The translations under genes were made by a program, and so were the position numbers. DNA of 15,945 nt, taken from a virus (taxonomy: Duplodnaviria; Heunggongvirae; Uroviricota; Caudoviricetes). The DNA lies in the IMG/VR virus record IMGVR_UViG_2698536395_000013, one strand, 5' to 3'. This document shows positions 1,016 through 10,738 of this stretch, in pieces; position 1 is the first letter of the stretch; every line of letters starts with the position of its first letter. The notes below the pieces were generated by a model, which had not been told where the DNA came from, ran no database searches, and saw only the letters and a program-made list of their open reading frames with translations.

Positions 1016-2098
1016 ATGAAAAAATTAACAGTGGCAATTTCTGCTGTAGCTGCATCAGTACTGATGGCGATGTCTGCTCAGGCAGCTGAAATTTATAATA
1101 AAGACAGTAACAAGCTGGATCTGTACGGGAAAGTTAATGCTAAGCACTACTTCTCCTCTAATGATGCAGATGATGGTGATACTACTTATGCCCGTCTTGG
1201 CTTCAAAGGTGAAACCCAAATCAACGATCAACTGACTGGTTTCGGTCAGTGGGAATATGAATTCAAAGGCAACCGCGCTGAATCTCAAGGTTCCTCCAAA
1301 GATAAAACCCGTCTTGCCTTCGCTGGCCTGAAATTCGGTGACTACGGCTCCATCGATTATGGCCGTAACTACGGTGTAGCATACGATATTGGTGCATGGA
1401 CCGACGTTCTGCCAGAATTCGGTGGCGATACCTGGACCCAAACAGATGTATTCATGACTGGTCGCACCACAGGTGTTGCAACTTATCGTAACAATGACTT
1501 CTTTGGTCTGGTTGATGGTCTGAACTTTGCTGCTCAGTATCAGGGTAAAAATGACCGTACTGACGTAACTCAAGCTAATGGTGATGGTTTCGGTTTCTCC
1601 ACTACTTATGAGTATGAAGGTTTCGGCGTAGGTGCAACCTATGCTAAATCTGATCGCACTAATAATCAGGTTATCTACGGTAACAACAGCCTGAATGCAT
1701 CTGGTCAAAATGCTGAAGTATGGGCAGCTGGTCTGAAATATGATGCGAACAACATCTATCTGGCTACTACCTATTCTGAAACCCAAAACATGACTGTTTT
1801 TGGTAAAAACCATATTGCCAACAAAGCACAAAACTTCGAAGTAGTTGCACAATATCAGTTCGACTTCGGTCTGCGTCCGTCCGTTGCTTATCTGCAATCT
1901 AAAGGGAAAGACTTGGGTGCTTGGGGTGATCAGGACCTGGTTGAATATATTGATGTAGGTGCAACCTATTACTTCAACAAAAATATGTCCACTTTTGTTG
2001 ACTACAAAATCAACCTGATTGATAAGAGCGATTTCACGAAAGCATCTGGCGTTGCTACCGATGATATCGTTGCTGTAGGTATGGTTTACCAGTTCTAA
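1016..2098 (+). CDS. nmpC: OmpC/OmpF-family general porin (NmpC/OmpD-like), 360 aa, intact
   Basis: Signal peptide [23 protein letters not shown] then [16 protein letters not shown], typical porin beta-strand periodicity, and a C-terminal ...VGMVYQF ending in Phe. AAAGGG SD before the ATG. Lies antisense between Q and the holin, as nmpC does in DLP12. Confidence 0.9.
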
Positions 2099-2104
2099 TT
2101 TGAT

Positions 2105-2149
2105 TACTAAAACATATGTTGTGGGAGGCTTTGCCTCCCCAACATATAA
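2105..2149 (-). terminator. hairpin plus U-tract on minus strand between Q and the antisense porin gene (possible terminator; also stabilises the 3' end of the porin mRNA on plus)
   Basis: Imperfect 15-bp stem ATATGTTGGGGAGG/CCTCCCACAACATAT around a CAAAG loop, followed on the minus strand by GUUUUAGUAAU. On the plus strand the same hairpin sits just 3' of the porin stop with no T-run. Confidence 0.3.
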
Positions 2150-2286
2150 GTGGCTCCCTCAAGCCACTTCCTTTAGAAGCACAACCTTGCTTCTAACTAT
2201 ATAAACCTTCTGTTATATATTACCCTTTATTTTTGGGGGCGTTTCAACGCCCCATTCTTAATAATTTTTAGTAAACAATTGGCATA

Positions 2287-2670
2287 TTAATTAGAGTTAT
2301 TAACAACGATATCCATCTCTAACCGGATATCTAATGCCATTAACATCCCTTCAATTATGCCCTCAGCCTTCTGTAACCTTTTCCCGATATAACCATCAGA
2401 GCAGCAATGCTTACCTGCCAGTGACATGAATGTCATACCGACTACATAATAATCTACTAATAAATCGTGCAAATCGCTGTTGTTCTTTTTCAGACGGGCC
2501 ATGCACCCGCAAATGATCATCGCGTCATCGTCACAACATTGCGGGCGAGATTTTACTTTTGAAGTAATTAATCCCTTAAAACCGGCGGCAATGGACGACC
2601 AGGTCACATCTTCATGATTATTAGCCGCCCACGCTCCCCAACGCTCAAGAACCATCTGAATATCACGCAT
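2287..2670 (-). CDS. quuD: late-gene antiterminator Q (phage 82 / DLP12 QuuD type), 127 aa
   Basis: Translation [34 protein letters not shown]...[16 protein letters not shown]...[13 protein letters not shown] with Cys clusters typical of 82-type Q. GGAG SD 9 nt before the ATG at 2670. The 5-codon extension in the track (MWSKL) is rejected. Confidence 0.85.
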
Positions 2671-2755
2671 CAACTTACTCCACAAAAATCAGACCAGAAC
2701 GCCAATTACAAGCAAAAATCAACGAAACAGTATTAGTTGATTGTTATCTCTGACT

Positions 2756-2896
2756 TCATACTCCTGCTCCTGTCAGGGTTTTGGCGTAATTCTTCAGTAT
2801 TCGGTAATCGGTCAAAACAGAACCGGGGAAACGATATAAGCGCAGACGCCCCCAGCGGTGGCGAAGACGTTCTGCCATATAAAACTCAAACATCAT
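2756..2896 (-). CDS. ylcG: small DLP12-type protein YlcG, 46 aa
   Basis: Not in the ORF track (under 60 aa). Translation [46 protein letters not shown]. Its ATG overlaps the rusA stop (ATGA), fitting the rusA-ylcG-Q order of DLP12. Confidence 0.6.
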
Positions 2897-3255
2897 TCAT
2901 TCCCCATTTCGGTGATGGTCAGTTCCAGCCTCCCACCTTTGGTAACAGGCATCTTCACAACGCGGTAATCAACGACCTGAGCATCATCCAGCCAGAAACC
3001 TGCTTTAGTGAGTGCGTCAAAAGCGGCTTTTTGCAGATTATCCAGGTCACGGCGACGGCGATCCGGCATGTGGCACTCAATGCGGATTTTCACAGGCATA
3101 GCCAAGCCGATATCCAGCATTGCGTTTTTAATGATTCGGGCGACGTTATCGCGGTATGCCTGCCCCTCTGCGCTGACGTGCGTGCGCCCGCGATTATGGC
3201 GGTAATAGCGATTATTGCTCGGAGGCCAGGGTAATGTGATGCTGTAGGTATTCAC
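2893..3255 (-). CDS. rusA: Holliday-junction resolvase RusA, 120 aa, GTG start
   Basis: Translation (V)[101 protein letters not shown]...; GTG start at 3255 overlaps the ybcO stop (GTGA). The longer track ORF (to 3318) is rejected. Confidence 0.85.
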
Positions 3256-3542
3256 GCCTTGATTACCCCCTCTTTCAGCCAGATAACCTGCGTTCTCGCC
3301 ATACCTTCCAGCGCGCATTCTTTTGCGTACTCAGCATCGACAAAATGCGTGCGGCGGTCGATTTCGTCGTGACAGGCAGAACAGGCAATGGTGGCAATAA
3401 GGTCTGGCGGTTTAATACCGGTGCCACACAGTCCAGCCAGCCGGATATGTGCCAGTACAGACGTTTCAGGGTTGCCATTGCATACGCCAGGGATTCTTAC
3501 CTGGCATTCGCGACCACGCGCTGCTTTTCTCAAATCAGCCAT
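3252..3542 (-). CDS. ybcO: YbcO-family (DUF1364) prophage protein, 96 aa
   Basis: Translation [96 protein letters not shown] with a Cys/His-rich metal-site pattern. AAGGAGG SD directly upstream of the ATG at 3542. Confidence 0.8.
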
Positions 3543-3705
3543 GATTCCTCCTTGCTGCCAGTCGCAACCATTTTTTATCAACCAGGCTGGCGGTATATCC
3601 GAGCAGTGTTGGTATTTCGGATGGTTTTAGCTCAGGCTTACGCTTACGACGATTTGGTACTCTGTAGATGTGTCCGTTCATGACACGAATAAGCGGTGTA
3701 GCCAT
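3535..3705 (-). CDS. ninE: NinE-like small protein, 56 aa
   Basis: Not in the ORF track. Translation [56 protein letters not shown]. Its ATG overlaps the NinB-family stop (TAATG) and its stop overlaps the ybcO start. Confidence 0.65.
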   Translation of the reverse strand: MATPLIRVMNGHIYRVPNRRKRKPELKPSEIPTLLGYTASLVDKKWLRLAARRNHG

Positions 3706-4160
3706 TACGCCTCCTGCTTGTCGCGCAGCAGCTGGAACTCGCAGCTCTGCGGAATAGTCAGGTGGCAGCCAATATTCATCGCCCAGGCTTCAACCTTACA
3801 CAGGAAGACATACATCTCTCCGGTATCAAGATCGGAGGTATGGCGTAACGACTGGATAGTAGTGATTTCGCCGGTTACGACATCAACCAGGTCCTTGGTT
3901 TCATAACCGAGGTATGTGTGTTTGAGAGCATCTTTTACCCATGCTGCGGTAGCGAACGATTTCCCCCTGCGGATAAGGTATTCACTGATTTCGCTGTACC
4001 ACATGTGGCTAAGTGCATTCTGGGAAAGACTGCGTCTCTCGCGCCACGGTTTAAGCACCATGCGAAAGCACTTGCCGTCTTCCAAATAAGGCTGGAGCTG
4101 CTGACCGATAGCGGTGAAGTTACCGCGATGCAGTTTGATGCCGTCTTGTGGGAGGTTCAC
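3705..4160 (-). CDS. ybcN: NinB-family recombination protein (DLP12 YbcN-like), 151 aa, GTG start
   Basis: Translation contains [17 protein letters not shown], which parallels the lambda NinB RSLDQN..LW motif. GGAGGTG SD upstream of the GTG at 4160. Confidence 0.8.
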
Positions 4161-4195
4161 GCTTCACCTCCGCAGAGGTCAAACGCTGGATAAAG

Positions 4196-4288
4196 AAAAT
4201 CGCAGGTGCATTTCTGCATCTGTGACGGGAGAAGATAGTTTAGATTGTATGTGCGCATAAACGTCCCCGTTTAGCGCAGAAGTCACCG
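4196..4288. repeat. 93-bp direct repeat, copy A (left boundary of the inserted cassette)
   Basis: 4196-4288 aligns base-for-base with 6518-6610 with about 5 mismatches by my manual alignment. Contains the hairpin GCGCATAAACG-TCCC-CGTTTAGCGC. Confidence 0.85.
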
Positions 4289-4381
4289 GAGGAGTTCAAA
4301 CTCCGGTGACTTAATTATGACAAGTTGATTATTGAAAATCAAAAGTCATTTAAACAATAATGATACCCAGCAAGAGATTTC

Positions 4382-4783
4382 TTATTTTAACTCATAGATC
4401 AGACAGTCAACGATTTCTAAACCATTTACCATAGAATTAGAAACGCGAACTTTACCATCGTTGACTCTAGCAAATCCTTTTAACATTTTATAAACAAAAG
4501 CTGAATCCCCCTTAGCCTCAATTGCTTCTAATGGTATCGGCTTATACTTTTTTGATATGCTATTTCTATTTATCTCACTGATTTTTCTATATATTTCTGC
4601 CGGCCCACGTTCTGAGAAGTCACTGATAACTAAAATATATCTCCAAGATAGATCTGGGTAATAAAACCACATTGCAGCATCAATAGTTAAATTCTGTAAC
4701 TTGAGTTTTTTTAACAAAAATTGACCTGAGAATTCCATATCTTTTGTCAACTCTCTGCCGATTACCAGTGTGCTTTTACCCAT
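4382..4783 (-). CDS. hypothetical protein, 133 aa, partner of the upstream HEPN gene
   Basis: ORF with GGAG SD 9 nt before the ATG at 4783; overlaps the HEPN stop by 22 nt, so the two genes are likely co-translated. AT-rich coding sequence. No motif recognised. Confidence 0.55.
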   Translation of the reverse strand: MGKSTLVIGRELTKDMEFSGQFLLKKLKLQNLTIDAAMWFYYPDLSWRYILVISDFSERGPAEIYRKISEINRNSISKKYKPIPLEAIEAKGDSAFVYKMLKGFARVNDGKVRVSNSMVNGLEIVDCLIYELK

Positions 4784-5178
4784 TTCAAAACTCCAGAATT
4801 TTGGTCACCTACAGCATCAAACAATTGTTCGGCCATAGCTTTACTTATGTTATTGTCGTATCTAAATTGCTCGCTCCAGTCTTTAACGACCGACCAGTTA
4901 ATCTCCAACGAAACATCATTTTTTGCGTCAGCAATCAAAATTTGATGTAAGTTGGCAATTTTGAGAAGTTGCGACAAATCATGAGTATATGAATCATTTA
5001 CGACTTTTTTGTTTGGAAACTCATGTTGTAAAAATGACTTGGCAATACAGGCCTTCAATGCACATTCAACTGCATACCCACAAAGATAATATGCACCATG
5101 AAAAAAGCCATGATCAAGCAAGCATTTGGCCTCATTAAGCCTAGTGTCAGATAATGCTTCAAGGTCGTTTTTATTCAT
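4762..5178 (-). CDS. HEPN-domain protein, 138 aa
   Basis: Translation ...EAKCLLDHGFFHGAYYLCGYAVECALKACIAKSFLQHEFPNKKVVNDSYTHDLSQLLKIANL... matches the classic HEPN helical pattern (A.E.ALKA ... tHDL..Ll). No canonical R-x4-6-H is visible before the His, so catalytic status is uncertain. Confidence 0.65.
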   Translation of the reverse strand: MNKNDLEALSDTRLNEAKCLLDHGFFHGAYYLCGYAVECALKACIAKSFLQHEFPNKKVVNDSYTHDLSQLLKIANLHQILIADAKNDVSLEINWSVVKDWSEQFRYDNNISKAMAEQLFDAVGDQNSGVLKWVKAHW

Positions 5179-5477
5179 ACAATTATAACTTGAATTATCC
5201 TAATTTTTATGATTATACCCTTATCAGGTATGATGTAGGAACTGAAAACAATATTGGATATCATTTTCGGTATTTCTCTGCAAATTCCAGCCCACAGGAT
5301 CTCGGTGTACAATCTGTCGCTGATCGCGCAAATTTAGGGTCAATCACTTCATTTTTTGCATCAAACCCTCACTAACATCGAACGATTATAGTACAAGTAG
5401 TGTTCTTGACTTCTCATTAAACCGTCAGCATTCAATTAATTACAAAATACTAGCGGCATTTCTCTCCCGCAACTTTA

Positions 5478-6221
5478 TTACAGCCGTTCAGAACGTAAAT
5501 GCGTCAATACTCGACTCCACTTATCATCCTGCCACGGCCGGAATTTTACATGTGCCGTTTCTCTGGCAAGGATTGCCTGTGCCTTATTGAGTATCCGGGG
5601 ATATTCTTGTTCGATTGAAGTGAAGCGACCGGCTTCGCGGTGTTCTGCTACCTGAAGAAGCGGAGTGACGTTTTGGCAAGCGGTTAACATTGTGTCACTT
5701 GCCCGCCATAACCAAGCAAGTGTGCAAAGTTCGTTATCAGTGAATTGTTTTGTGATTGGGGATTGTTGAATTTCTCGATCGAGAATATCCAGCACCCAGC
5801 GGCGGAATTCTTTGGCCACAGGAGTGCGGGCGAACATGGCGATCAGATGGGCGCCACGGAGGGAGAAAATGCGAGTCTTCTTACGATAATTTCCTGAGGT
5901 CGTTGATTCGACGACCTGAGACATTCCGTCAGTAAACTCATCAATATTTTTGTTGTAGATGTCGGTTACTGCTTTGGTGCTGGCATATTTTAATGCTGCC
6001 GCCAATTCTTTGCTGGTAAACCAGATCTGGTTGTTGTGATTTATAGGAGTGAATTTTACATCGCGGAATGCGAGCTGAGTGACCATAGCGATAATCTCGT
6101 TTTGAATTTGAGCTATCACCACCGACGACGCCAATCGACTGGTGGTGGACTGTGCAAGGTTGGCGTAACCGGTCAAAACGAAATCCGGCGCTTCCGAAGA
6201 AGCCCTCACACAGCCCACCAT
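5478..6221 (-). CDS. Bro-N domain protein (Roi / antirepressor-like), about 247 aa; start uncertain
   Basis: Translation contains FRDVKFTPINHNNQIWFTSKELAAALKYASTKAVTDIYNKNIDEF, which resembles the Bro-N DNA-binding domain. Start chosen at MVGCV (ATG 6221) because the longer track ORF (to 6323) would read through an intrinsic terminator at 6249-6270. A later start at MVTQ (6089) is possible. Confidence 0.55.
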   Translation of the reverse strand: MVGCVRASSEAPDFVLTGYANLAQSTTSRLASSVVIAQIQNEIIAMVTQLAFRDVKFTPINHNNQIWFTSKELAAALKYASTKAVTDIYNKNIDEFTDGMSQVVESTTSGNYRKKTRIFSLRGAHLIAMFARTPVAKEFRRWVLDILDREIQQSPITKQFTDNELCTLAWLWRASDTMLTACQNVTPLLQVAEHREAGRFTSIEQEYPRILNKAQAILARETAHVKFRPWQDDKWSRVLTHLRSERL

Positions 6222-6248
6222 AATTTTTGTGTAGACGTGCACTGCGCA

Positions 6249-6270
6249 TAAAAAAACCGCGAACGCGGTT
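6249..6270 (-). terminator. intrinsic terminator on minus strand (nin-region tR-like) immediately upstream of the Bro-N gene
   Basis: 6-bp stem AACCGC/GCGGUU with a 4-nt loop, followed on the minus strand by UUUUUUA (plus 6249-6254 is TAAAAAA). Confidence 0.5.
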
Positions 6271-6330
6271 ATGCGTCGTTTTGATGTCCGGGACGCCAAT
6301 CCCGTGTGCCGATTTTGCGGCAACGCACAG

Positions 6331-6360
6331 AATATAGCGCCGGATAAATAATGTCGTCAA
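6331..6360 (-). promoter_or_regulatory. candidate sigma70 promoter on minus strand feeding the terminator/Bro-N leader
   Basis: Minus-strand TTGACG (6360..6355), 18-nt spacer, TATATT (6336..6331). The spacer is 1 nt longer than optimal. Sequence-only prediction. Confidence 0.3.
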
Positions 6361-6517
6361 CCCTTGCATATGGGGGGCGCGATGATCACTACTACCACCA
6401 TAATCGCTCCAACTGTTGCAACTACTTTAGGCTAAGACATCACGATTTCCATATCACCTTTAGCCGCCAGACAAACAGAGACTCCCTGTTCTTGGCTGCC
6501 AAAAACACCGAATGCAA

Positions 6518-6610
6518 AAAATCGCAGGTGTATTTCTGCATCTGTGGAGGGAGAAGAGAGTTTGGATTGTATGTGCGCATAAACGTCCCCGTTTAGCGCA
6601 GAAGTCACCG
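6518..6610. repeat. 93-bp direct repeat, copy B (right boundary of the inserted cassette)
   Basis: See copy A; the two copies are 2322 bp apart. Similarity stops abruptly on both sides of each copy. Confidence 0.85.
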
Positions 6611-6838
6611 TAGTTGTTCATATTCTGATGACATGATAATTTCCTATTGAATAGAAAAAATTAACACGACTCATTCTTATGACTGGAAAAAGCAATCATG
6701 CTAATAATCATTGTTGTTCCAGTTCCAAATGCAGCGAAATAATCACCAATATTTTTTCTACCGGTTTCGACTTTGATGCTATATTCTGCTAACACCTAAC
6801 TAACACTACGTTTCACACAGCAATTACATGGAAATAAC

Positions 6839-7186
6839 ATGACTATCAAAGCGACTGACATAGAGATTCTTCATCGTTATGCTGAAGGGGTAATGGAACG
6901 TTCTAACCATCATGCAAAAAATGTTGGTGCAGCCGCTCTTACATTGCTAGGAGGTGTTATCTGGAAAGCCCTGCCCGGATCAATCGAGATAAGAACGTAT
7001 AACGGAAGTCTTGCAAATATGGTGTGGTGGCAAAGCGAAAGAACATTAAAAAATTATGCAATCTCATACAACCATAATTCATGTGAAATTGAAATGAGAG
7101 ATGAATCAGTCAAAGGTGCTGTATTATTTAGCATTTCCAACGAAACCACTCCAGAAAAAATATTATCACAGCTTTCTGAGCTTTAA
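6839..7186 (+). CDS. hypothetical protein, 115 aa, solitary plus-strand gene inside the minus-strand early-right operon
   Basis: ORF MTIKATDIEILHRYAEGVMERSNHHAKNVGAAALTLLGGVIWKALPGSIEIRTYNGSLANMVWWQSERTLKNY.... Very AT-rich gene and upstream region. Extended -10 TGcTATATT at 6777-6785. Followed by a hairpin at 7192-7209. No family recognised. Confidence 0.55.
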   Translation: MTIKATDIEILHRYAEGVMERSNHHAKNVGAAALTLLGGVIWKALPGSIEIRTYNGSLANMVWWQSERTLKNYAISYNHNSCEIEMRDESVKGAVLFSISNETTPEKILSQLSEL

Positions 7187-7191
7187 TTAAA

Positions 7192-7209
7192 GGCGGTGCT
7201 AACACCGCC
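7192..7209 (-). terminator. hairpin between the convergent 115-aa gene and P; candidate tR2-like terminator for the minus-strand operon
   Basis: 7-bp stem GGCGGTG/CACCGCC with loop CTAA. On the minus strand it is followed by UUUAAUUAAAG; on the plus strand there is no T-run. Confidence 0.4.
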
Positions 7210-7390
7210 CATACCATTACTCCACATCTTACGCAACTTGATAATTATGCTCTATTAAATACCCACAATATTTCATCAATGCATGGGTCAGCTACAAAAT
7301 GTTTACCGTGGTAATTCCTGTTTTCGCAACATCTCAAAAGAACAATAAACACTGTATTTCTTCAAGTAACGAAGAATCTTTCTTTGCCCG

Positions 7391-8092
7391 TCATACACTT
7401 GCTCCTTTCAGCCCAAACTTAGCTTTGATTTCTGCGATCTTCGCCAGAGCCTGTGCACGATTTAGAGGTCTACCGCCCATAACAGGAAGTTGTTTTACTG
7501 GTTCAGGTATCGTCTCACCACGGTTAATTCGCGCTGTCATACAGGTCAGTTCATCGGCAGCCTTGCGCCGTAATTCCGCGTCAGTCAGCGCATTGGCCCG
7601 CATGTTCTGGTACAGGTTGGTAACCAACCAGTAATGCGCGTTCGATTTCCACGGATAAGACTCTGCATCCGGATACAGGCCACGCTTCCGGCAATACTCG
7701 TAAACCATATCAACCAGCTCGCTGACGTTTGGCAGCCCGGCGTTAACGGATGCTTCTTCCCGGCACCATGCAACAAACTGCCCGGGTGATGGCAGAAATG
7801 GTCTATTCTGCCGACGGGCAACACGCATTCCGGCGCTCACCTGTTCCATCGTGGTGATCCCGTTTTCCCGGAAAGCCAGAACCCACTGGCGGCGGATTTC
7901 GTTCAGTTCGTTCTGGTCACGATTAGCCAGGCTCGCCGGGAAAGTTGCCAGTAACTGGCTGAATACACCGTTGATTATCTGCGCTACCTGCTGTACCTGC
8001 GGCTTTTCGTCGTACTGTTCCGGCATGTTGTTGGCGATCCGACGCATCTGCTCACGGTCAAAGTTAATCATCTGTGCGGCGATGTTTTTCAT
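7391..8092 (-). CDS. P: replication protein P (DnaB helicase loader), 233 aa
   Basis: Translation MKNIAAQMINFDREQMRRIANNMPEQYDEKPQVQQVAQIINGVFSQLLATFPASLANRDQNELNEIRRQWVLAFRENGITTMEQV...AKIAEIKAKFGLKGASV is close to lambda P as I recall it. ATG overlaps the O stop (ATGA). The extended track ORF (to 8197) is rejected. Confidence 0.9.
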   Translation of the reverse strand: MKNIAAQMINFDREQMRRIANNMPEQYDEKPQVQQVAQIINGVFSQLLATFPASLANRDQNELNEIRRQWVLAFRENGITTMEQVSAGMRVARRQNRPFLPSPGQFVAWCREEASVNAGLPNVSELVDMVYEYCRKRGLYPDAESYPWKSNAHYWLVTNLYQNMRANALTDAELRRKAADELTCMTARINRGETIPEPVKQLPVMGGRPLNRAQALAKIAEIKAKFGLKGASV

Positions 8093-9018
8093 AGATCCAC
8101 CCCGTAAATCCAGTCTGTGTTTGTCAGGTCGAGTTTTGGTTTGCCGACTGTCACGCCAGCCTGTTGCTTGTTCCGGTTGATTTCGAGCTGGGTCCACTTG
8201 TCGCGGAGTTTGGCCGGACTCAGCACGTTACCGGACCAGAAGTTGTCCTGGCAGGCCCAGCGGAACAGTACACACATGTCGCGGTGGTTACGTCCATCAC
8301 GTTCACGCATCAGACGGATATCGTTAGCCCACCCTGCAAAATTCGGTTTTCTGGCTGATGGCGCGATGGTCTTCACCATGTCAAACATCCACTCTGCGGC
8401 GGTCAGGTCTTCTGCTGTCCCCCACTTGCTGCCGCTCTGAATCGCAGCATCCGCTTTCACCACAGGAAGGTCGTTTTCTGGCAGGTCAGAGGATTCGCCA
8501 GAATTCTCGGACGAATAAGGTTTTATATTGTCTTTTGTTAGTTTGTCTTTTGTGTTTACCTGATTCGGGTAAGTGCCTTTACCTGATTTGGGTAAACTTT
8601 TCTTACCTGATTCAGGTAAATTTACCTCTTTCAGGTAAACTTTATTTTTCTTACCTGATTCGGGTAATGTTGACCATTCACTGACCACATTATTAATGCC
8701 GATATTCCGCCCGCTCTGAATAAAAATCCCACGCTTTACCAGAACACTTTTTGCAGCAGAACACTTGTGCGGCAATATCCCGGTCAACTCGGAAAGTTGC
8801 TCGTTGCTCACCCAGTCCAGTTTTTTATTAAAGCCATATGTTTTGCGCATGACAGCCAGGAAGACCAGAAGCTGGTGCTGTGTTAATCCGGCCAGCATTA
8901 CAGCTTCCAGCAACTCATTTGCAATGCGCGTATAACCATCATCGAGATCTGCCACGCGCGGCTCCTTTTGTGCCGCATCCGGCACTGGAAAATTGAATAT
9001 CTCAGCAGTGTTTGCCAT
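8089..9018 (-). CDS. O: replication initiator O, 309 aa; N-terminal iteron-binding domain diverged, C-terminal P-interaction domain lambda-like
   Basis: Starts MANTAEIFNFPVPDAAQKEPRVADLDDGY with GGGAGG SD. The C-terminal part AIQSGSKWGTAEDLTAAEWMFDMVKTIAPSARKPNFAGWANDIRLMRERDGRNHRDMCVLFRWACQDNFWSGNVLSPAKLRDKWTQLEINRNKQQAGVT is close to lambda O. The iteron array lies inside the gene. Confidence 0.9.
   Translation of the reverse strand: MANTAEIFNFPVPDAAQKEPRVADLDDGYTRIANELLEAVMLAGLTQHQLLVFLAVMRKTYGFNKKLDWVSNEQLSELTGILPHKCSAAKSVLVKRGIFIQSGRNIGINNVVSEWSTLPESGKKNKVYLKEVNLPESGKKSLPKSGKGTYPNQVNTKDKLTKDNIKPYSSENSGESSDLPENDLPVVKADAAIQSGSKWGTAEDLTAAEWMFDMVKTIAPSARKPNFAGWANDIRLMRERDGRNHRDMCVLFRWACQDNFWSGNVLSPAKLRDKWTQLEINRNKQQAGVTVGKPKLDLTNTDWIYGVDL
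8556..8667. repeat. ori iterons: five copies of a 17-bp near-palindrome TTACCTGATTCGGGTAA inside the O gene, next to an AT-rich segment (about 8500-8555)
   Basis: Copies at 8556-8572, 8579-8595, 8603-8619, 8622-8638 and 8651-8667 with 1-3 substitutions. Encoded as the repetitive LPESGK peptide in O. Confidence 0.8.
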
Positions 9019-9104
9019 AATTCCTCCCGCAATGAGTGTGTTACGATTTGCACCTGAAAGTCGGTTCTGTTCCAGCAGACCGGCTTTCGCCATTTCTGAA
9101 CCTG

Positions 9105-9644
9105 TCATATCGCCCCCAGCATGGTAGTAACCATCGCCATCAATGGACCAGCCAGCTCTGGGTCCACACGAAACATCGACACAATACCTTCACTAATTTC
9201 CTTCAGTTTCTGGTGGCGTGGTGCGTTGAGAATGACAGCCTGTTTTGCCTCACTGAGTTCCTTTTCCATTTCAGCCAACCTAGCCATGAAGCTATCCTGC
9301 TCAACCAGGTAACCGCGATATTCCAGCGGTAGTACCGCCAGAATTGCCGGGGTCAGTTCACGCACGTTATTTCGGTATTTTTCAGAATCGAATTTGTTAT
9401 CGAGGAAGCGGAACAGCTTCTGGCGTGTACGGCTGACATCATCAGGGAAATCGATGGTGCCGCCGCCCTGCTCCCGATACTCATTCACAATGAGTGTGGC
9501 AACGACATCCTGATTATCTACAGCCGACCAGGCGCGGACGGCATCACGGATTTTTTCGTGGCCTGGCACCTGTTTTGTTTGAGAACGATTTATCACCGCA
9601 GTCGGGCTAAATCCGCTAGTCTGTTGGTATGGAAGTGGTTGCAT
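9105..9644 (-). CDS. hypothetical phage regulatory protein in the cII position, 179 aa
   Basis: ORF with AAGGAG SD before the ATG at 9644, between cro and O. Much longer than lambda CII (97 aa) and no HTH recognised by eye. Functional assignment is positional only. Confidence 0.45.
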   Translation of the reverse strand: MQPLPYQQTSGFSPTAVINRSQTKQVPGHEKIRDAVRAWSAVDNQDVVATLIVNEYREQGGGTIDFPDDVSRTRQKLFRFLDNKFDSEKYRNNVRELTPAILAVLPLEYRGYLVEQDSFMARLAEMEKELSEAKQAVILNAPRHQKLKEISEGIVSMFRVDPELAGPLMAMVTTMLGAI

Positions 9645-9713
9645 AATTGACTCCTTTAGTTTGAATTGACTGTTAAGTTGATTGCTTATTGTTAAAGAGC
9701 GTGAAATGGAAAT

Positions 9714-9944: not shown

Positions 9945-10048
9945 AACAACCTCCGTGGTTAATTTGAATCAAGATTAAAACTATGGTTGTCTTTAGTCAA
10001 CAACCATTTTCGTTTGATGGAATAAAACCTTGGTTGTACATTTGGACT
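9945..10048. promoter_or_regulatory. OR region: divergent pR (minus, for cro) and pRM (plus, for cI) with operator palindromes
   Basis: 25-bp palindrome ATGGTTGT-N9-ACAACCAT at 9983-10007 overlaps the minus-strand -35 TTGACT of a pR candidate. A further TGGTTGTACA half-site at 10031-10040 overlaps the pRM -10 candidate TACATT (10037-10042), with -35 TTGATG at 10015-10020. Confidence 0.5.
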
Positions 10049-10738
10049 ATGAAAACAACACTCTCAGAAAGACTTAAAGAAGCCAGATTAGCGCGAGGCC
10101 TTACACAAAAGGCGCTTGGGGATTTGGTCGGGGTTAGCCAGGCTGCTATTCAGAAAATCGAAACAGGGAAAGCTAATCAAACAACTAAAATCGTGGAGAT
10201 CGCGAACGCTTTGGGTGTGCGCGCAGAATGGTTATCTTCTGGCGTTGGAAATATGTCAGACAGTACAGTGCAACCAATACAATCAACTGTCAGCCATTCC
10301 AAATACTTCAAGATTGACGTTCTTGATATAGAAGTCAGTGCTGGGCCGGGAGTCATCAACCGTGAGTTTGTAGAAGTTCTACGCTCGGTTGAGTACTCGT
10401 TTGACGATGCTCGTCACATGTTCGATGGTAGGAAGGCAGAAAATATCCGCATCATTAACGTGCGTGGTGACAGCATGTCAGGAACGATCGAACCAGGTGA
10501 TCTGCTGTTCGTTGATATCACGGTTAAATCTTTCGACGGTGATGGTATCTATGCATTTCTGTACGACGACACCGCCCATGTAAAGCGCCTGCAAATGATG
10601 AAGGATAAACTGCTGGTTATCTCTGATAACAAGAGCTACTCACCGTGGGACCCTATCGAGAAAGACGAGATGAACCGGGTATTCATATTCGGTAAGGTTA
10701 TTGGGAGCATGCCGCAGACGTACAGAAAACACGGATAA
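10049..10738 (+). CDS. cI: CI-type prophage repressor (N-terminal HTH, C-terminal S24 LexA-like autopeptidase), 229 aa, probably leaderless
   Basis: Translation MKTTLSERLKEARLARGLTQKALGDLVGVSQAAIQKIETGKA (HTH) ... INVRGDSMSGTIEPGDLLFVD ... VKRL (Ser/Lys dyad context). No SD; the ATG lies about 7 nt after the putative -10. The upstream in-frame ATG at 9983 lies inside the operator and is rejected. Confidence 0.85.
   Translation: MKTTLSERLKEARLARGLTQKALGDLVGVSQAAIQKIETGKANQTTKIVEIANALGVRAEWLSSGVGNMSDSTVQPIQSTVSHSKYFKIDVLDIEVSAGPGVINREFVEVLRSVEYSFDDARHMFDGRKAENIRIINVRGDSMSGTIEPGDLLFVDITVKSFDGDGIYAFLYDDTAHVKRLQMMKDKLLVISDNKSYSPWDPIEKDEMNRVFIFGKVIGSMPQTYRKHG

Follow-up and report, generated by a model that had tools for sequence, protein, structure and literature searches.

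Results

Gene content of the locus and anatomy of the repeats

The window, by which we mean the whole 15,945-nucleotide stretch of tailed-phage DNA analysed here, belongs to an E. coli lambdoid prophage of the DLP12/phage-82 type and covers its early-right region, which reads on the minus strand (Table 1). Two direct repeats, L and R, match at 88 of 93 positions (5 mismatches, ~95% identity), as a first-pass annotation of the window had reported, and bracket 2.3 kb lying between P and a NinB-family gene, here of the ybcN type. Three minus-strand genes stand between them, encoding an antirepressor, a HEPN-domain protein and its 133-aa partner. Because the second-strongest direct repeat in the window is merely 34 nt long at 71% identity, a chance origin of the 93-bp pair is excluded. 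The hairpin GCGCATAAACG/CGTTTAGCGC that had been noticed in each repeat is indeed present in both, at 4253-4277 and 6575-6599. Similarity was also said to end abruptly outside the repeats, but on the P-proximal side it fades gradually, with 24 matches over the 38 positions of 4293-4330, and set against copies in other phages the homologous unit spans ~165 bp. The 93-bp repeat is the best-conserved core of this ~165-bp regulatory element, which we name the ylcH/orf33 leader.

The description of the block interior as one-third GC holds for the HEPN-pair half (4346-5440, ~35%), but not for the interior as a whole (41%, against 49-51% in the flanks), for the antirepressor gene (47%) or for the region of two small-RNA genes of the C4 and IsrK families (51%). 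The three interior genes do not form one AT-rich unit; the HEPN pair alone is AT-rich exchangeable cargo. Between P and the R leader, a VCH_CASS14-family gene occupies another cargo slot in an AT-rich stretch of its own (6839-7186, GC 36.5%), and ren, present in relatives, is missing from this region of the window. This plus-strand gene, the absence of ren and the two RNA genes, both recognized at the level of Rfam, had gone unmentioned in the first-pass annotation.

Table 1. Features of the locus, in order of position in the window.
Feature	Position	Strand	Basis or description
ybcN, NinB/Orf-family gene, PRK09741 type	3705..4160	-	NCBIfam NF007281, E = 4e-83; PGAP
ylcH/orf33, 33-codon upstream ORF	4157..4258	-	translation; phage 82 annotation; PGAP WP_072097617.1
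left 93-bp repeat, L core	4196..4288	.	repeat comparison
leader hairpin 3, L copy	4204..4221	-	AGAUGCA-GAAA-UGCACCU, RNAalifold prediction
leader hairpin 2, L copy	4253..4277	-	GCGCUAAACG-GGGA-CGUUUAUGCGC
leader hairpin 1, L copy	4280..4312	-	10-12-bp stem, 9-nt loop UUUGAACUC
L-leader promoter-like site	4314..4342	-	-35 TTGATT (4337-4342), 17-bp spacer, -10 CATAAT (4314-4319)
AT-rich variable cargo slot, antirepressor gene to L leader	4346..5440	-	35% GC
133-aa HEPN partner gene	4382..4783	-	predicted MNT-like fold
HEPN-domain protein gene	4762..5178	-	Pfam PF05168, E = 3e-6; phrog_5737
antirepressor gene, Bro-N + P22_AR_C, 202 aa	5478..6086	-	Pfam; PHROG anti-repressor Ant families
45 codons in frame upstream of antirepressor ATG	6087..6221	-	positional equivalent of Gifsy-1 orf45
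C4 antisense RNA family member	6138..6225	-	Rfam RF01695, 82.5 bits vs gathering score 45
IsrK-family small RNA	6250..6322	-	Rfam RF01394, 64.1 bits vs gathering score 50, full-length
isrK intrinsic terminator	6255-6270	-	terminator-like hairpin + T run
isrK promoter-like site	6331..6360	-	TTGACG, 18-bp spacer, TATATT; consensus scan 10/12
small hydrophobic ORF	6357..6452	-	MEIVMSWPKVVATVGAIMVVVVIIAPPICKG in relatives
chimeric upstream ORF, R copy, 46 codons	6440..6580	-	translation; PGAP: truncated pseudogene
right 93-bp repeat, R core	6518..6610	.	repeat comparison
degenerate upstream part, R copy	6604..6650	-	hairpin 1 cut to 6 bp, -5.2 kcal/mol; good -35 absent
VCH_CASS14-family gene	6839..7186	+	Pfam PF18315, E = 6e-20

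The L copy as a putative leader RNA

The L leader heads the operon ybcN-ninE-ybcO-rusA-ylcG-Q, of which ybcN is the first long gene. Its promoter-like site, with the -35 inside the palindrome TTGATTnnnnnnAATCAA (4325-4342), scores 9/12 in a consensus scan, has a TG preceding the -10, and is conserved over 108 copies, a conservation from which we infer promoter activity. Three hairpins follow. The loop of hairpin 1, whose fold in the L copy has z = -5.8, belongs to a family with the consensus YCUGAACA; hairpin 2 carries a Shine-Dalgarno-like GGGGA in its loop and the ylcH AUG within its 3' arm; hairpin 3 lies inside the ylcH ORF, with GCGAUUUUC coming directly after it. The L core takes in the 3' end of the 3' arm of hairpin 1, hairpins 2 and 3, and ylcH codons 1-21. 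The stop of ylcH overlaps the GTG start of ybcN (GTGA), and in divergent leader variants the ORF is kept in frame and ends in ATGA or GTGA. The order thus conserved would be that of a sigma-70-like promoter, a 5' leader RNA, and an upstream ORF of 31-33 codons bearing hairpin 3, with the stop-start overlap probably coupling translation of this ORF to that of the next gene, an arrangement that suggests a regulatory role for the ylcH leader.

In a covariance-model alignment, which was fitted to the proposed leader structure, compensatory changes are seen at 8 of the 10 pairs of helix 1 and at 9 of 10 in helix 2, and 96.7% of cells overall are paired, compared with 81.9% in shuffled alignments (0/500 shuffles equal the observed value) and 17-42% when the partners are slid. 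At least 12 distinct stem sequences occur for helix 1 and at least 6 for helix 2, and the abundance of G.U pairs in these covarying stems points to an RNA structure and to selection on RNA. Hairpin 3 is invariant in the set of 120 IMG/VR loci fetched with the helix-3 pattern, a biased sample in which its invariance is forced by the selection. In a sample chosen by way of the YbcN protein, not a DNA motif, the leader is present in 12 of 16 loci from six genera, the upstream ORF is still in frame, and helix 3 varies: Siccibacter has a compensatory change, and Phytobacter has a different hairpin in its place. The window's L copy has every feature by which we define the ylcH leader: the covarying hairpins 1 and 2, the YCUGAACA loop, the GGGGA loop, and the ORF ending in ATGA/GTGA.

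Roughly 142 leader copies were found in 131 loci, ~123 of them directly upstream of ybcN/ninE and 12 upstream of an isrK/C4-antirepressor unit; all 12 of the latter are accompanied by a downstream L copy wherever the locus is long enough. Among 5,426 complete E. coli genomes the element occurs in 2,756 and an R-type junction in 297. Rfam has no match at the L or R copy at E <= 1, and neither Rfam nor the literature that we searched records the ylcH leader as a covarying RNA structure. The first-pass annotation took the repeat for a conserved linker or site. As far as sequence conservation and covariation can tell, it is instead a functional promoter/leader/upstream-ORF element with covarying helices, not a neutral linker, an att site or a dedicated recombination site.

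The R copy and its antirepressor unit

Hairpins 2 (6575-6599) and 3 (6526-6543) are intact in the R copy, which scores 133.6 bits against a covariance model of the leader (R1), compared with 154 bits for L. It departs from the definition of the leader in its weakened hairpin 1 and in the end of its upstream ORF, a chimera in which the ylcH N-terminus is joined to a different C-terminus. The R copy appears to head an accessory unit that begins with a small hydrophobic ORF, broken in the window by a nonsense codon (TGG to TAG at 6432-6434), and continues with what would be a self-contained IsrK/C4-orf45-antirepressor module with a promoter of its own.

By its architecture this is a known kind of unit, a putative antirepressor operon controlled by IsrK and C4 small RNAs. 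Start codon analysis places the true start of the antirepressor at ATG 6086, and the 45-codon frame ahead of it (6087-6221) overlaps the C4-like RNA. That RNA matches RF01695 over the full length of the model (E = 2.7e-15), as its homologues in loci L002 and L003 also do above the gathering score, and its predicted pairing with the antirepressor leader (6060-6140) reaches -55.7 kcal/mol; shuffled sequences average -39.2 +/- 5.0, and none of 300 paired as well. The Rfam target element RF03163 (c4-a1b1) reaches 40.6 bits at 6285-6337, under its gathering score of 46.7 and overlapping the isrK match. Promoter-like sites in the region as a whole are not commoner in the consensus scan than in shuffled sequence. 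Homology to the antirepressor modules of Stx phages starts near 6369, and the same module stands in the nin region of Stx phages without a leader.

The poor -35, the weak hairpin 1 and the nonsense codon mean that the window's R copy may itself be a relic and not a working leader. A stronger form of this idea is that R copies are functionless: the antirepressor module would long ago have inserted illegitimately into the ylcH-ybcN leader and left a truncated ylcH pseudogene behind, and the cassette behaviour described below would be an accident of the remaining homology. PGAP calls the R copy an incomplete pseudogene, and the module, with its own promoter, does occur elsewhere without the leader; in locus L136 it stands at this very place without an upstream repeat. 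Yet R copies have been kept in several lineages at 78-93% identity with hairpins 2 and 3 intact, hairpin 1 is preserved by compensatory or wobble changes in IdasGreatGrand and PhiR26_1, and the full promoter palindrome survives in the R copies of five further loci (L003, L037, L116, L047 and L124). The chimeric upstream ORF and the hydrophobic ORF coupled to it are likewise conserved and intact in relatives. The window R and the IdasGreatGrand R have derived bases in common, which argues for descent under constraint and not for free decay. We therefore think it unlikely, if still worth keeping in mind, that the R copies are dead sequence.

The HEPN pair and the variable slot

The HEPN protein scores 27.8 bits against PF05168 (cut-off 22) and matches the PADLOC model PDC-M28A (E = 1.8e-7). 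Its gene overlaps that of the 133-aa partner by 22 nt, and the predicted fold of the partner most resembles those of minimal nucleotidyltransferases and MNT antitoxins; the partner has not kept the catalytic acidic residues, and the G-S...D-x-D signature is absent from it. A small HEPN protein with an overlapping small partner of MNT-like predicted fold resembles HEPN-MNT type II toxin-antitoxin pairs and the PADLOC candidate defence system PDC-M28, and the two genes probably constitute a defence pair of the toxin-antitoxin or abortive-infection type. No promoter-like site belonging to the pair itself was found in the consensus scan.

Homology with two phages that carry both leader copies, IdasGreatGrand and PhiR26_1, breaks at 4346-4353 and at 5443-5485, the two ends of the AT-rich slot. 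The first-pass annotation had anticipated other cargo between the same repeats, and at least five different gene sets are found across phages in the slot behind the antirepressor gene; phage L100 has a pyocin/colicin-immunity module between its repeat copies. Its view of the site as one where accessory genes gather also fits the data: the 790 bp upstream of the ybcN-proximal copy are hypervariable, falling into 58 sequence clusters among 111 loci. Leader copies may head accessory operons of more than one kind, the antirepressor unit in the window and, in L100, a 271-aa Cys-rich gene after a bacteriocin module. Parts of the block also occur without the upstream repeat, the antirepressor module at the corresponding place in L136 and the HEPN pair in STEC409, where most of the antirepressor gene is lacking too.

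Occupied and empty alleles

In E. coli NJS001 and STEC799, ybcN is separated from the same VCH_CASS14-P flank by a single repeat copy, the empty site that the first-pass annotation had envisaged. A synthetic probe for the empty site aligns to both without interruption at 98.4% identity, and in NJS001 the YlcH and VCH_CASS14 proteins on either side of the single leader are identical to those of the window. The one leader of these two genomes is a perfect chimera of the window's copies, L-type through all five SNPs and R-type beyond 6610, so that the junction lies inside the repeat and the crossover within a 46-bp identical tract. A second lineage supplies an independent case, in which PhiR26_1 is occupied, five related loci are empty (L044, L034, L127, L067 and L152), and all align collinearly at 97-98% identity on both sides of the inter-repeat segment, which alone interrupts them; here the two alignments overlap by the 104-bp leader core. 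Hybrid copies also exist, as in L124, where the repeat is 629 bp long at 98.6% identity. Mosaic breakpoints independent of the repeat are common (STEC409, L136, PhiR5_1), so that exchange at the leader is only one of several routes.

We consider it likely, from comparison of these sequences, that the block owes its cassette behaviour to homologous recombination between the duplicated ylcH leaders that bracket it. The 2.3 kb would act as a cassette because the two adjoining transcription units start with the same ~100-165 bp. Recombination between the leaders would delete the block and leave one chimeric leader, while a leader crossover paired with another at any point of the conserved nin genes would make the block transferable to any phage bearing the leader. 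The first-pass annotation had proposed a cassette gained by recombination: the crossover in the repeat stands, whereas the empty alleles are compatible with either gain or loss, and the two of the window type would more readily be read as deletions. The L and R copies are old paralogues, each travelling with its own downstream unit. Phages L038 and L100 each carry two copies of different subtypes, and the copies are therefore not a duplication made at insertion.

Hairpins, crossovers and a neighbouring gene could together suggest site- or structure-specific recombination, with the repeats as att- or attC-like sites and the 2.3 kb as an integron-type gene cassette. Each repeat does hold a conserved hairpin, the inferred crossovers of both lineages fall in the hairpin-2 segment, and PF18315, the family of the neighbouring VCH_CASS14 gene, was first described in Vibrio integron cassettes. 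The hairpin-2 segment, however, is also the longest tract of perfect identity in both lineages, where homologous recombination would be expected to act, and the hairpin arms (GCTAAAC, GTTTATG) misfit the attC core sites RYYYAAC and GTTRRRY. No integrase or recombinase gene was found in or beside the block among the ORFs and annotations from ybcN to O. The predominance of single copies fixed as the 5' leader of ybcN (~123 of ~142), the G.U-rich helices and the mixed subtypes of L038 and L100 all weigh in the same direction, and we regard such sites as very improbable. Still less credible, and effectively refuted, is a repeat freshly duplicated in a recent single insertion of three genes (as a long target-site duplication or by replication slippage): direct repeats of 95% identity do flank foreign-looking DNA, but their 5/93 differences are about the divergence between copies in different phages, R-specific bases recur in the R copies of other phages, L038 and L100 each combine two subtypes, the interior joins a conserved module whose GC is normal to an AT-rich slot that is exchanged separately, and neither a transposase nor terminal inverted repeats were found.

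Discussion

The leader-bearing operon of the window has a close and partly annotated relative in phage 82/DLP12 (GenBank X92588), which matches the window at 94% identity throughout the L copy and all that lies downstream, in the gene order orf33 (ylcH)-orf151 (ybcN)-ninE-ybcO-rusA-ylcG-Q. At the homologous positions that record annotates orf33, a ribosome-binding site, a putative -35, a -10, and an inverted repeat described as a 'possible regulator-binding site'. It treats the inverted repeat as a DNA operator, whereas the covarying, G.U-rich stems described here point to RNA, and conservation extends to two more hairpins and to the coupled upstream ORF. The phage 82 record also has a single copy, whereas the second copy in the window heads an accessory unit.

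The unit behind that second copy resembles the isrK-orf45-anrP locus of Gifsy-1 and the immI region of P1/P7 (c4 antisense RNA-icd-ant) in the order of its promoter-like site, terminated small RNA, C4-family RNA, 45-codon frame and Bro-N-type antirepressor. Its architecture matches that of Gifsy-1 isrK-orf45-anrP of Salmonella (Hershko-Shalev et al. 2016, PMC4825925). Known here from its sequence, the window's module differs from both in its location between P and ybcN, in the ylcH leader copy ahead of it, and in its 45 codons, which are in frame with the antirepressor with no intervening stop.

The block also recalls two concepts for mosaic lambdoid phages, morons and boundary or linker sequences, which are reportedly those of Susskind and Botstein and of Hendrix, Juhala and co-workers. 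Genes of deviant GC stand between the neighbours of relatives in a hypervariable slot, with exchange at a short sequence on a module boundary. The flanking genes are adjacent in a close relative, NJS001, which has ybcN-ylcH-leader-VCH_CASS14-P and lacks the 2.3 kb, as they also are in the empty loci of the PhiR26_1 type, and the deviant composition is that of the HEPN pair (35% GC), the antirepressor/C4/isrK part (47-51%) being like the flanks. In contrast to a generic linker, the boundary here can be named as one particular structured regulatory leader, of which there are two copies, and occupied and empty alleles have been found with the crossover mapped to a 46-bp tract.

We regard the block as solid mosaic-phage biology of moderate novelty, and the unannotated leader RNA as its most interesting part. 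A wider reading, which we put forward tentatively and hold to be somewhat less probable than its negation, would join the two: the ylcH leader would be an undescribed, very widespread cis-regulatory RNA of lambdoid prophages, consisting of three hairpins and a coupled ORF, in which a phage or host factor reads the YCUGAACA loop to set nin/Q expression, and which has been copied in front of accessory operons and serves as a portable patch of homology. If so, accessory operons would be co-regulated with the nin genes, and lambdoid phages would swap defence and antirepressor cargo through leader homology. In a prophage type that is very common, the putative leader RNA fronts the operon that runs through to Q, the late-gene antiterminator; its role is easily testable.

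The locus offers a sequence-resolved example of mosaic lambdoid prophages exchanging accessory genes at a duplicated regulatory leader, with occupied and empty alleles both present in natural E. coli genomes. The block carries an antirepressor putatively under small-RNA control and a candidate HEPN defence or toxin-antitoxin pair. Some 186 complete genomes have it, among them Shiga-toxin-producing E. coli of types O26 and O157, so that its movement is relevant to how prophages are induced, and phages resisted, in pathogens.

Prophage setting

The window is the early region of a lambdoid prophage of the DLP12/phage-82 type, read on the minus strand, and it matches the chromosome of E. coli E2865 over 9,980 bases at 100% identity. 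In order of descending coordinates, cI is followed by cro and by a YdaT-domain gene in the cII position, then by O and P; beyond the 2.3-kb block lie ylcH, ybcN, ninE, ybcO, rusA, ylcG, quuD and a porin gene (see table). Five copies of a 22-nt iteron (core TTACCTGATTCGGGTAA) occur within O, and we take them to be the expected lambdoid replication origin. A boxA-like site (CGCTCTTTAAC, 9690-9700, minus strand) lies directly 3' of cro, with no obvious boxB hairpin after it. The porin gene (1016-2098, plus strand), annotated ompC and nmpC-like, stands, as in DLP12, with the antiterminator gene quuD on one side and the lysis genes on the other.

The gene ren, which lies 3' of P in relatives, is not present in the window, and its place is occupied by a VCH_CASS14-family gene between P and the block. 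The interval from the right repeat to P (6611-7390) is a second AT-rich stretch, at 36.5% GC; in other phages the same slot holds PD-lambda-1, emrE-ybcK, an acyltransferase with a lipoprotein, or a TagO-like gene. The ORF at 7299-7634 had no match in Pfam.

The repeat as part of a putative structured leader

The two repeat copies that bracket the block, left (ybcN-proximal) and right (P-proximal), are identical at 88 of 93 positions, and the next-longest direct repeat within the window is only 34 nt at 71% identity. The first-pass annotation, which had called this pair near-identical and placed it around three genes, with a hairpin in each copy, described these features correctly. It had also stated that similarity stops abruptly outside the repeats, which is true towards ybcN, where it is gone within a few bases, but not towards P, where it decays more slowly (24 of 38 matches over 4293-4330).

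The repeat had been read as a conserved linker or recombination site; it is instead part of a promoter-like, structured leader with an upstream ORF. Where the phage 82 record X92588 is homologous to the left copy, it labels a putative -35 and a -10, a ribosome-binding site, an inverted repeat that it calls a 'possible regulator-binding site', and orf33, which overlaps the start of orf151 (ybcN). By the leader features mapped in the window, the 93-bp repeat extends from the last bases of the 3' arm of hairpin 1 as far as ylcH codon 21. In the PGAP annotation the left ORF encodes 33 aa and the right copy is called a truncated pseudogene; YlcH had no match in Pfam. The -35 palindrome, TTGATN8ATCAA, was considered as an operator shared with other sites such as OR and was rejected, its sole exact occurrence in the window being the left copy.

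Features of the window discussed in the text
Feature	Position	Strand	Remark
cI	9983-10738	+	
O	8089-9108		five iterons inside gene, 8551-8667
P	7391-8197		
VCH_CASS14-family gene	6839-7186	+	phrog_5959
Right repeat	6518-6610		
Small hydrophobic ORF	6357-6452	-	overlaps end of chimeric upstream ORF; just 5' of isrK
Promoter-like site	6360-6331	-	5' of isrK
IsrK small RNA	6250-6322	-	Rfam, 64.1 bits
Terminator	6270-6255	-	at isrK
C4 antisense RNA	6138-6225	-	Rfam, 82.5 bits
-35, TTGATT	4337-4342	-	left copy, promoter-like
-10, CATAAT	4314-4319	-	left copy, promoter-like
Hairpin 1	4280-4312	-	left copy
Hairpin 2	4253-4277	-	GGGGA in loop, AUG in 3' arm
Left repeat	4196-4288		
ylcH	4157-4258	-	terminates in GTGA on ybcN start
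Hairpin 3	4204-4221	-	inside ylcH

Conservation of the leader RNA

When copies were folded individually, hairpin 1 was represented by at least 12 distinct stem sequences and hairpin 2 by at least 6, nearly all of which fold, with G.U pairs common and with conserved loops (YCUGAACA in hairpin 1, GGGGA in hairpin 2). RNAalifold on a plain MAFFT alignment recovered helices 1 and 3 and missed helix 2 owing to misalignment of the stem variants, so the structure had to be specified by hand and the copies aligned with a covariance model; the model was built from 12 gapless E. coli-type copies, and 109 copies were aligned to it. In this alignment 96.7% of cells are paired; shuffles give 81.9%, with none of 500 as high as the real alignment, and sliding the partners gives 17-42%. 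Compensatory changes are present at 8 of 10 helix-1 pairs and at 9 of 10 helix-2 pairs. Helix 3 is invariant among these 109 copies, a set retrieved with a pattern taken from helix 3 itself, and for that reason we drew an independent sample from GTDB genomes by way of the YbcN protein. Here the leader was found in 12 of 16 loci (Escherichia, Enterobacter, Citrobacter, Huaxiibacter, Siccibacter and Phytobacter), and the covariance model did not find it in the Pantoea or Rosenbergiella loci of this sample. Helix 3 in Siccibacter shows a compensatory change in the loop-closing pair, and Phytobacter has a different 8-bp hairpin in its stead, with the upstream ORF in frame and still ending on the ybcN start.

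The loop of hairpin 1 was also considered as a boxB-like N-utilisation site and set aside: CUGAACA occurs four times in the window, near chance, and never in hairpin context. Neither copy matched Rfam at E <= 1. Literature searches on ylcH, on ylcH with ybcN, and (in full text) on the leader core sequence returned nothing relevant; a HusR/rusA paper was set aside, as its site is a different one, between ybcO and rusA.

Distribution and genomic context

BLAST located the leader in 29 phage records, among them phi80, HK639, HK225 and phages of Enterobacter and Klebsiella; in the records inspected (phi80, HK639, HK225, CobraSix and the E. coli phages) its position is directly 5' of a ybcN-type ninB. 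An IMG/VR scan with the core pattern yielded 120 loci. (Loci from this and the other samples are numbered with the prefix L below.) Over all loci, approximately 123 copies are directly 5' of ybcN/ninE, and 12 are 5' of an isrK/C4-antirepressor unit, each with a second copy downstream if the locus extends far enough. Among complete E. coli genomes the leader is present in 2,756 of 5,426 and the right-type junction in 297.

The DNA 5' of the leader is hypervariable, forming 58 clusters among 111 loci for left copies and 7 different sequences among 8 loci for right copies, which bears out the earlier view of this position as an accessory hotspot; a hotspot literature search found only P2/P4 and general defence-system work. 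In three loci of the YbcN-based sample (L143, L144 and L145, from prophages of Huaxiibacter, Siccibacter and Enterobacter), strong intrinsic-terminator-like hairpins (e.g. GGCCTCTTCGGAGGCCTTTTT and AAGCCCCGAAAGGGGCTTTTTT) immediately precede the leader -35, about 20-60 nt away. They look like terminators of upstream cargo, and their position before the -35 fits a promoter that restarts transcription after that cargo.

Contents of the block

The block contents are of known kinds, and they do not form the single AT-rich unit first described. An interior GC of one-third holds for the HEPN gene and its 133-aa partner (4346-5440, 35%) but not for the antirepressor gene (47%), the RNA-gene region (51%) or the whole interior (41%), so that an antirepressor module of normal GC adjoins a separate, variable, AT-rich slot.

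The module has the same architecture as Gifsy-1 isrK-orf45-anrP (PMC4825925) and as P1 immI. Its C4-like RNA is complementary to the antirepressor leader, and 0 of 300 shuffles pair as well; pairing of the C4-like RNA or IsrK with the repeated leader, considered as a regulatory link, was no better than in shuffles (fraction at least as good 0.15-0.89). A 45-codon frame (6087-6221, minus strand) runs from an ATG at 6221, in frame and uninterrupted by any stop, into the antirepressor start codon (ATG, 6086), and matches Gifsy-1 orf45 in position and length; its equivalent in phage PhiR26_1 is a separate ORF of 46 aa, and the frame had no match in Pfam. From about 6369 onward the module also occurs, without the leader, between ninE and roi/ninG in many Stx phages.

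The stretch from the right core to isrK contains a chimeric upstream ORF of 46 codons and then an overlapping small hydrophobic ORF, which had no Pfam match. The latter reads MEIVMSWPKVVATVGAIMVVVVIIAPPICKG in IdasGreatGrand and L124, with a variant ending ...AAMAVIIMVSIYWG in PhiR26_1, L116 and L037; in the window it is broken by a TGG-to-TAG change at 6432-6434, and it is intact in relatives. Its product could be a toxin or a small membrane peptide expressed from the right leader. Within the segment that holds this ORF, 6379-6407 forms a 29-nt inverted repeat (83% complementary) with 3190-3218 in the rusA/ybcO overlap region, which may be a chance match.

As had been anticipated, other cargo is found between leader copies. 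The slot 3' of the antirepressor holds the HEPN pair in the window, L111, L116 and L037, a 169-aa protein in PhiR26_1 and L047, a 118-aa protein in IdasGreatGrand, a reversed 241-aa ORF in L124 and three ORFs in L038; the alternative cargos of PhiR26_1, IdasGreatGrand and L038 had no match in Pfam. L100 (6847-11076) has a bacteriocin module between two heterologous leader copies; it is composed of a tail-fibre-like protein (Gp34_trimer and Peptidase_S74), a cloacin immunity protein and an S-type pyocin/colicin E3-like toxin. Just 32 ybcN codons come after the first copy, while the gene headed by the second is not ybcN but one for a Cys-rich protein of 271 aa.

Occupied and empty alleles

The block behaves as a cassette, as the first-pass annotation had proposed. 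A synthetic empty-site probe (window 4000-4288 joined to 6611-6900) matched E. coli NJS001 and STEC799 without a break along 100% of its length, with 98.4% identity, and about 183 genomes in two parts. NJS001 has the order Q-ylcG-rusA-ybcO-ninE-ybcN-ylcH, one leader, then VCH_CASS14-P-O, and its YlcH and VCH_CASS14 proteins are identical to those of E2865. Its single leader follows the left copy at all five diagnostic positions and the right flank from 6611 on, a chimera whose crossover must lie within the 46 bp that the two copies share without a mismatch (4243-4288 / 6565-6610). In a second, independent case, five loci (L044, L034, L127, L067 and L152) are collinear with PhiR26_1 (L003) at about 94-99% identity on both sides and do not have its positions 2080-3909. 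The overlap between the two alignments is the 104-bp leader core, and the one copy present is right-type at its 5' end and left-type at its 3' end.

Empty alleles as such cannot show direction, gain versus loss. Because the NJS001-type leader, which places a degenerate right-type hairpin 1 and promoter before ybcN, is atypical among the ~123 left copies, and because occupied genomes outnumber empty ones by ~90:1, deletion is the more likely origin of the NJS001 and STEC799 alleles.

L124 carries a 629-bp direct repeat (1-629 and 2464-3092, 98.6% identity) comprising 500 bp of cargo flank and the leader; its right copy is a left/right hybrid through this repeat, and the contig starts inside the repeat, which suggests either unequal crossing-over between left and right leaders, i.e. 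tandem cassette duplication, or an assembly break. Other alleles show that leader recombination is one route among several that shape the region: STEC409 has the HEPN pair and, from the antirepressor gene, its final 85 bp, with one leader, no right copy and no isrK/C4, L136 has the antirepressor module at the block position with no right copy, and PhiR5_1, Turner and D2 have partial antirepressor remnants.

Origin of the two copies and a possible mechanism

The left and right copies are not a fresh duplication: in the window their cores diverge about as much as copies of different phages do, the window right copy has derived bases in common with that of IdasGreatGrand, and L038 and L100 each hold two copies of different sequence subtypes. 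The differing subtypes and shared right-copy bases indicate that the right copy travels with the accessory unit. Right copies are complete with the promoter palindrome in L003, L037, L116, L047 and L124, and truncated at the promoter in the window, L002 and L038; hairpin 1 of the window right copy is the weakest of all variants.

Site-specific recombination at the repeats is unlikely, since recombinase genes are absent, the arms of the hairpin differ from attC core sites, and both mapped crossovers fall in the longest identical tract. Building on the observed anatomy, covariation, contexts and alleles joined within the repeat, we propose homologous recombination between leaders. The leader would be a promoter and structured 5' untranslated region, with an upstream ORF that would couple translation to the next gene, and the accessory unit would have acquired its own leader copy. 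The two copies would then offer ~100 bp of homology to RecA or to phage recombination functions, by which the 2.3 kb could be deleted, and one crossover in the leader with one in the conserved nin genes could move the block to another phage.

Taken as a whole, the original observation was essentially correct; its interpretation was right as to cassette-like behaviour and the accessory hotspot, and mistaken as to the identity of the repeat and the unity of the cargo. The leader RNA, conserved, covarying and unannotated, is the part that merits experimental follow-up.
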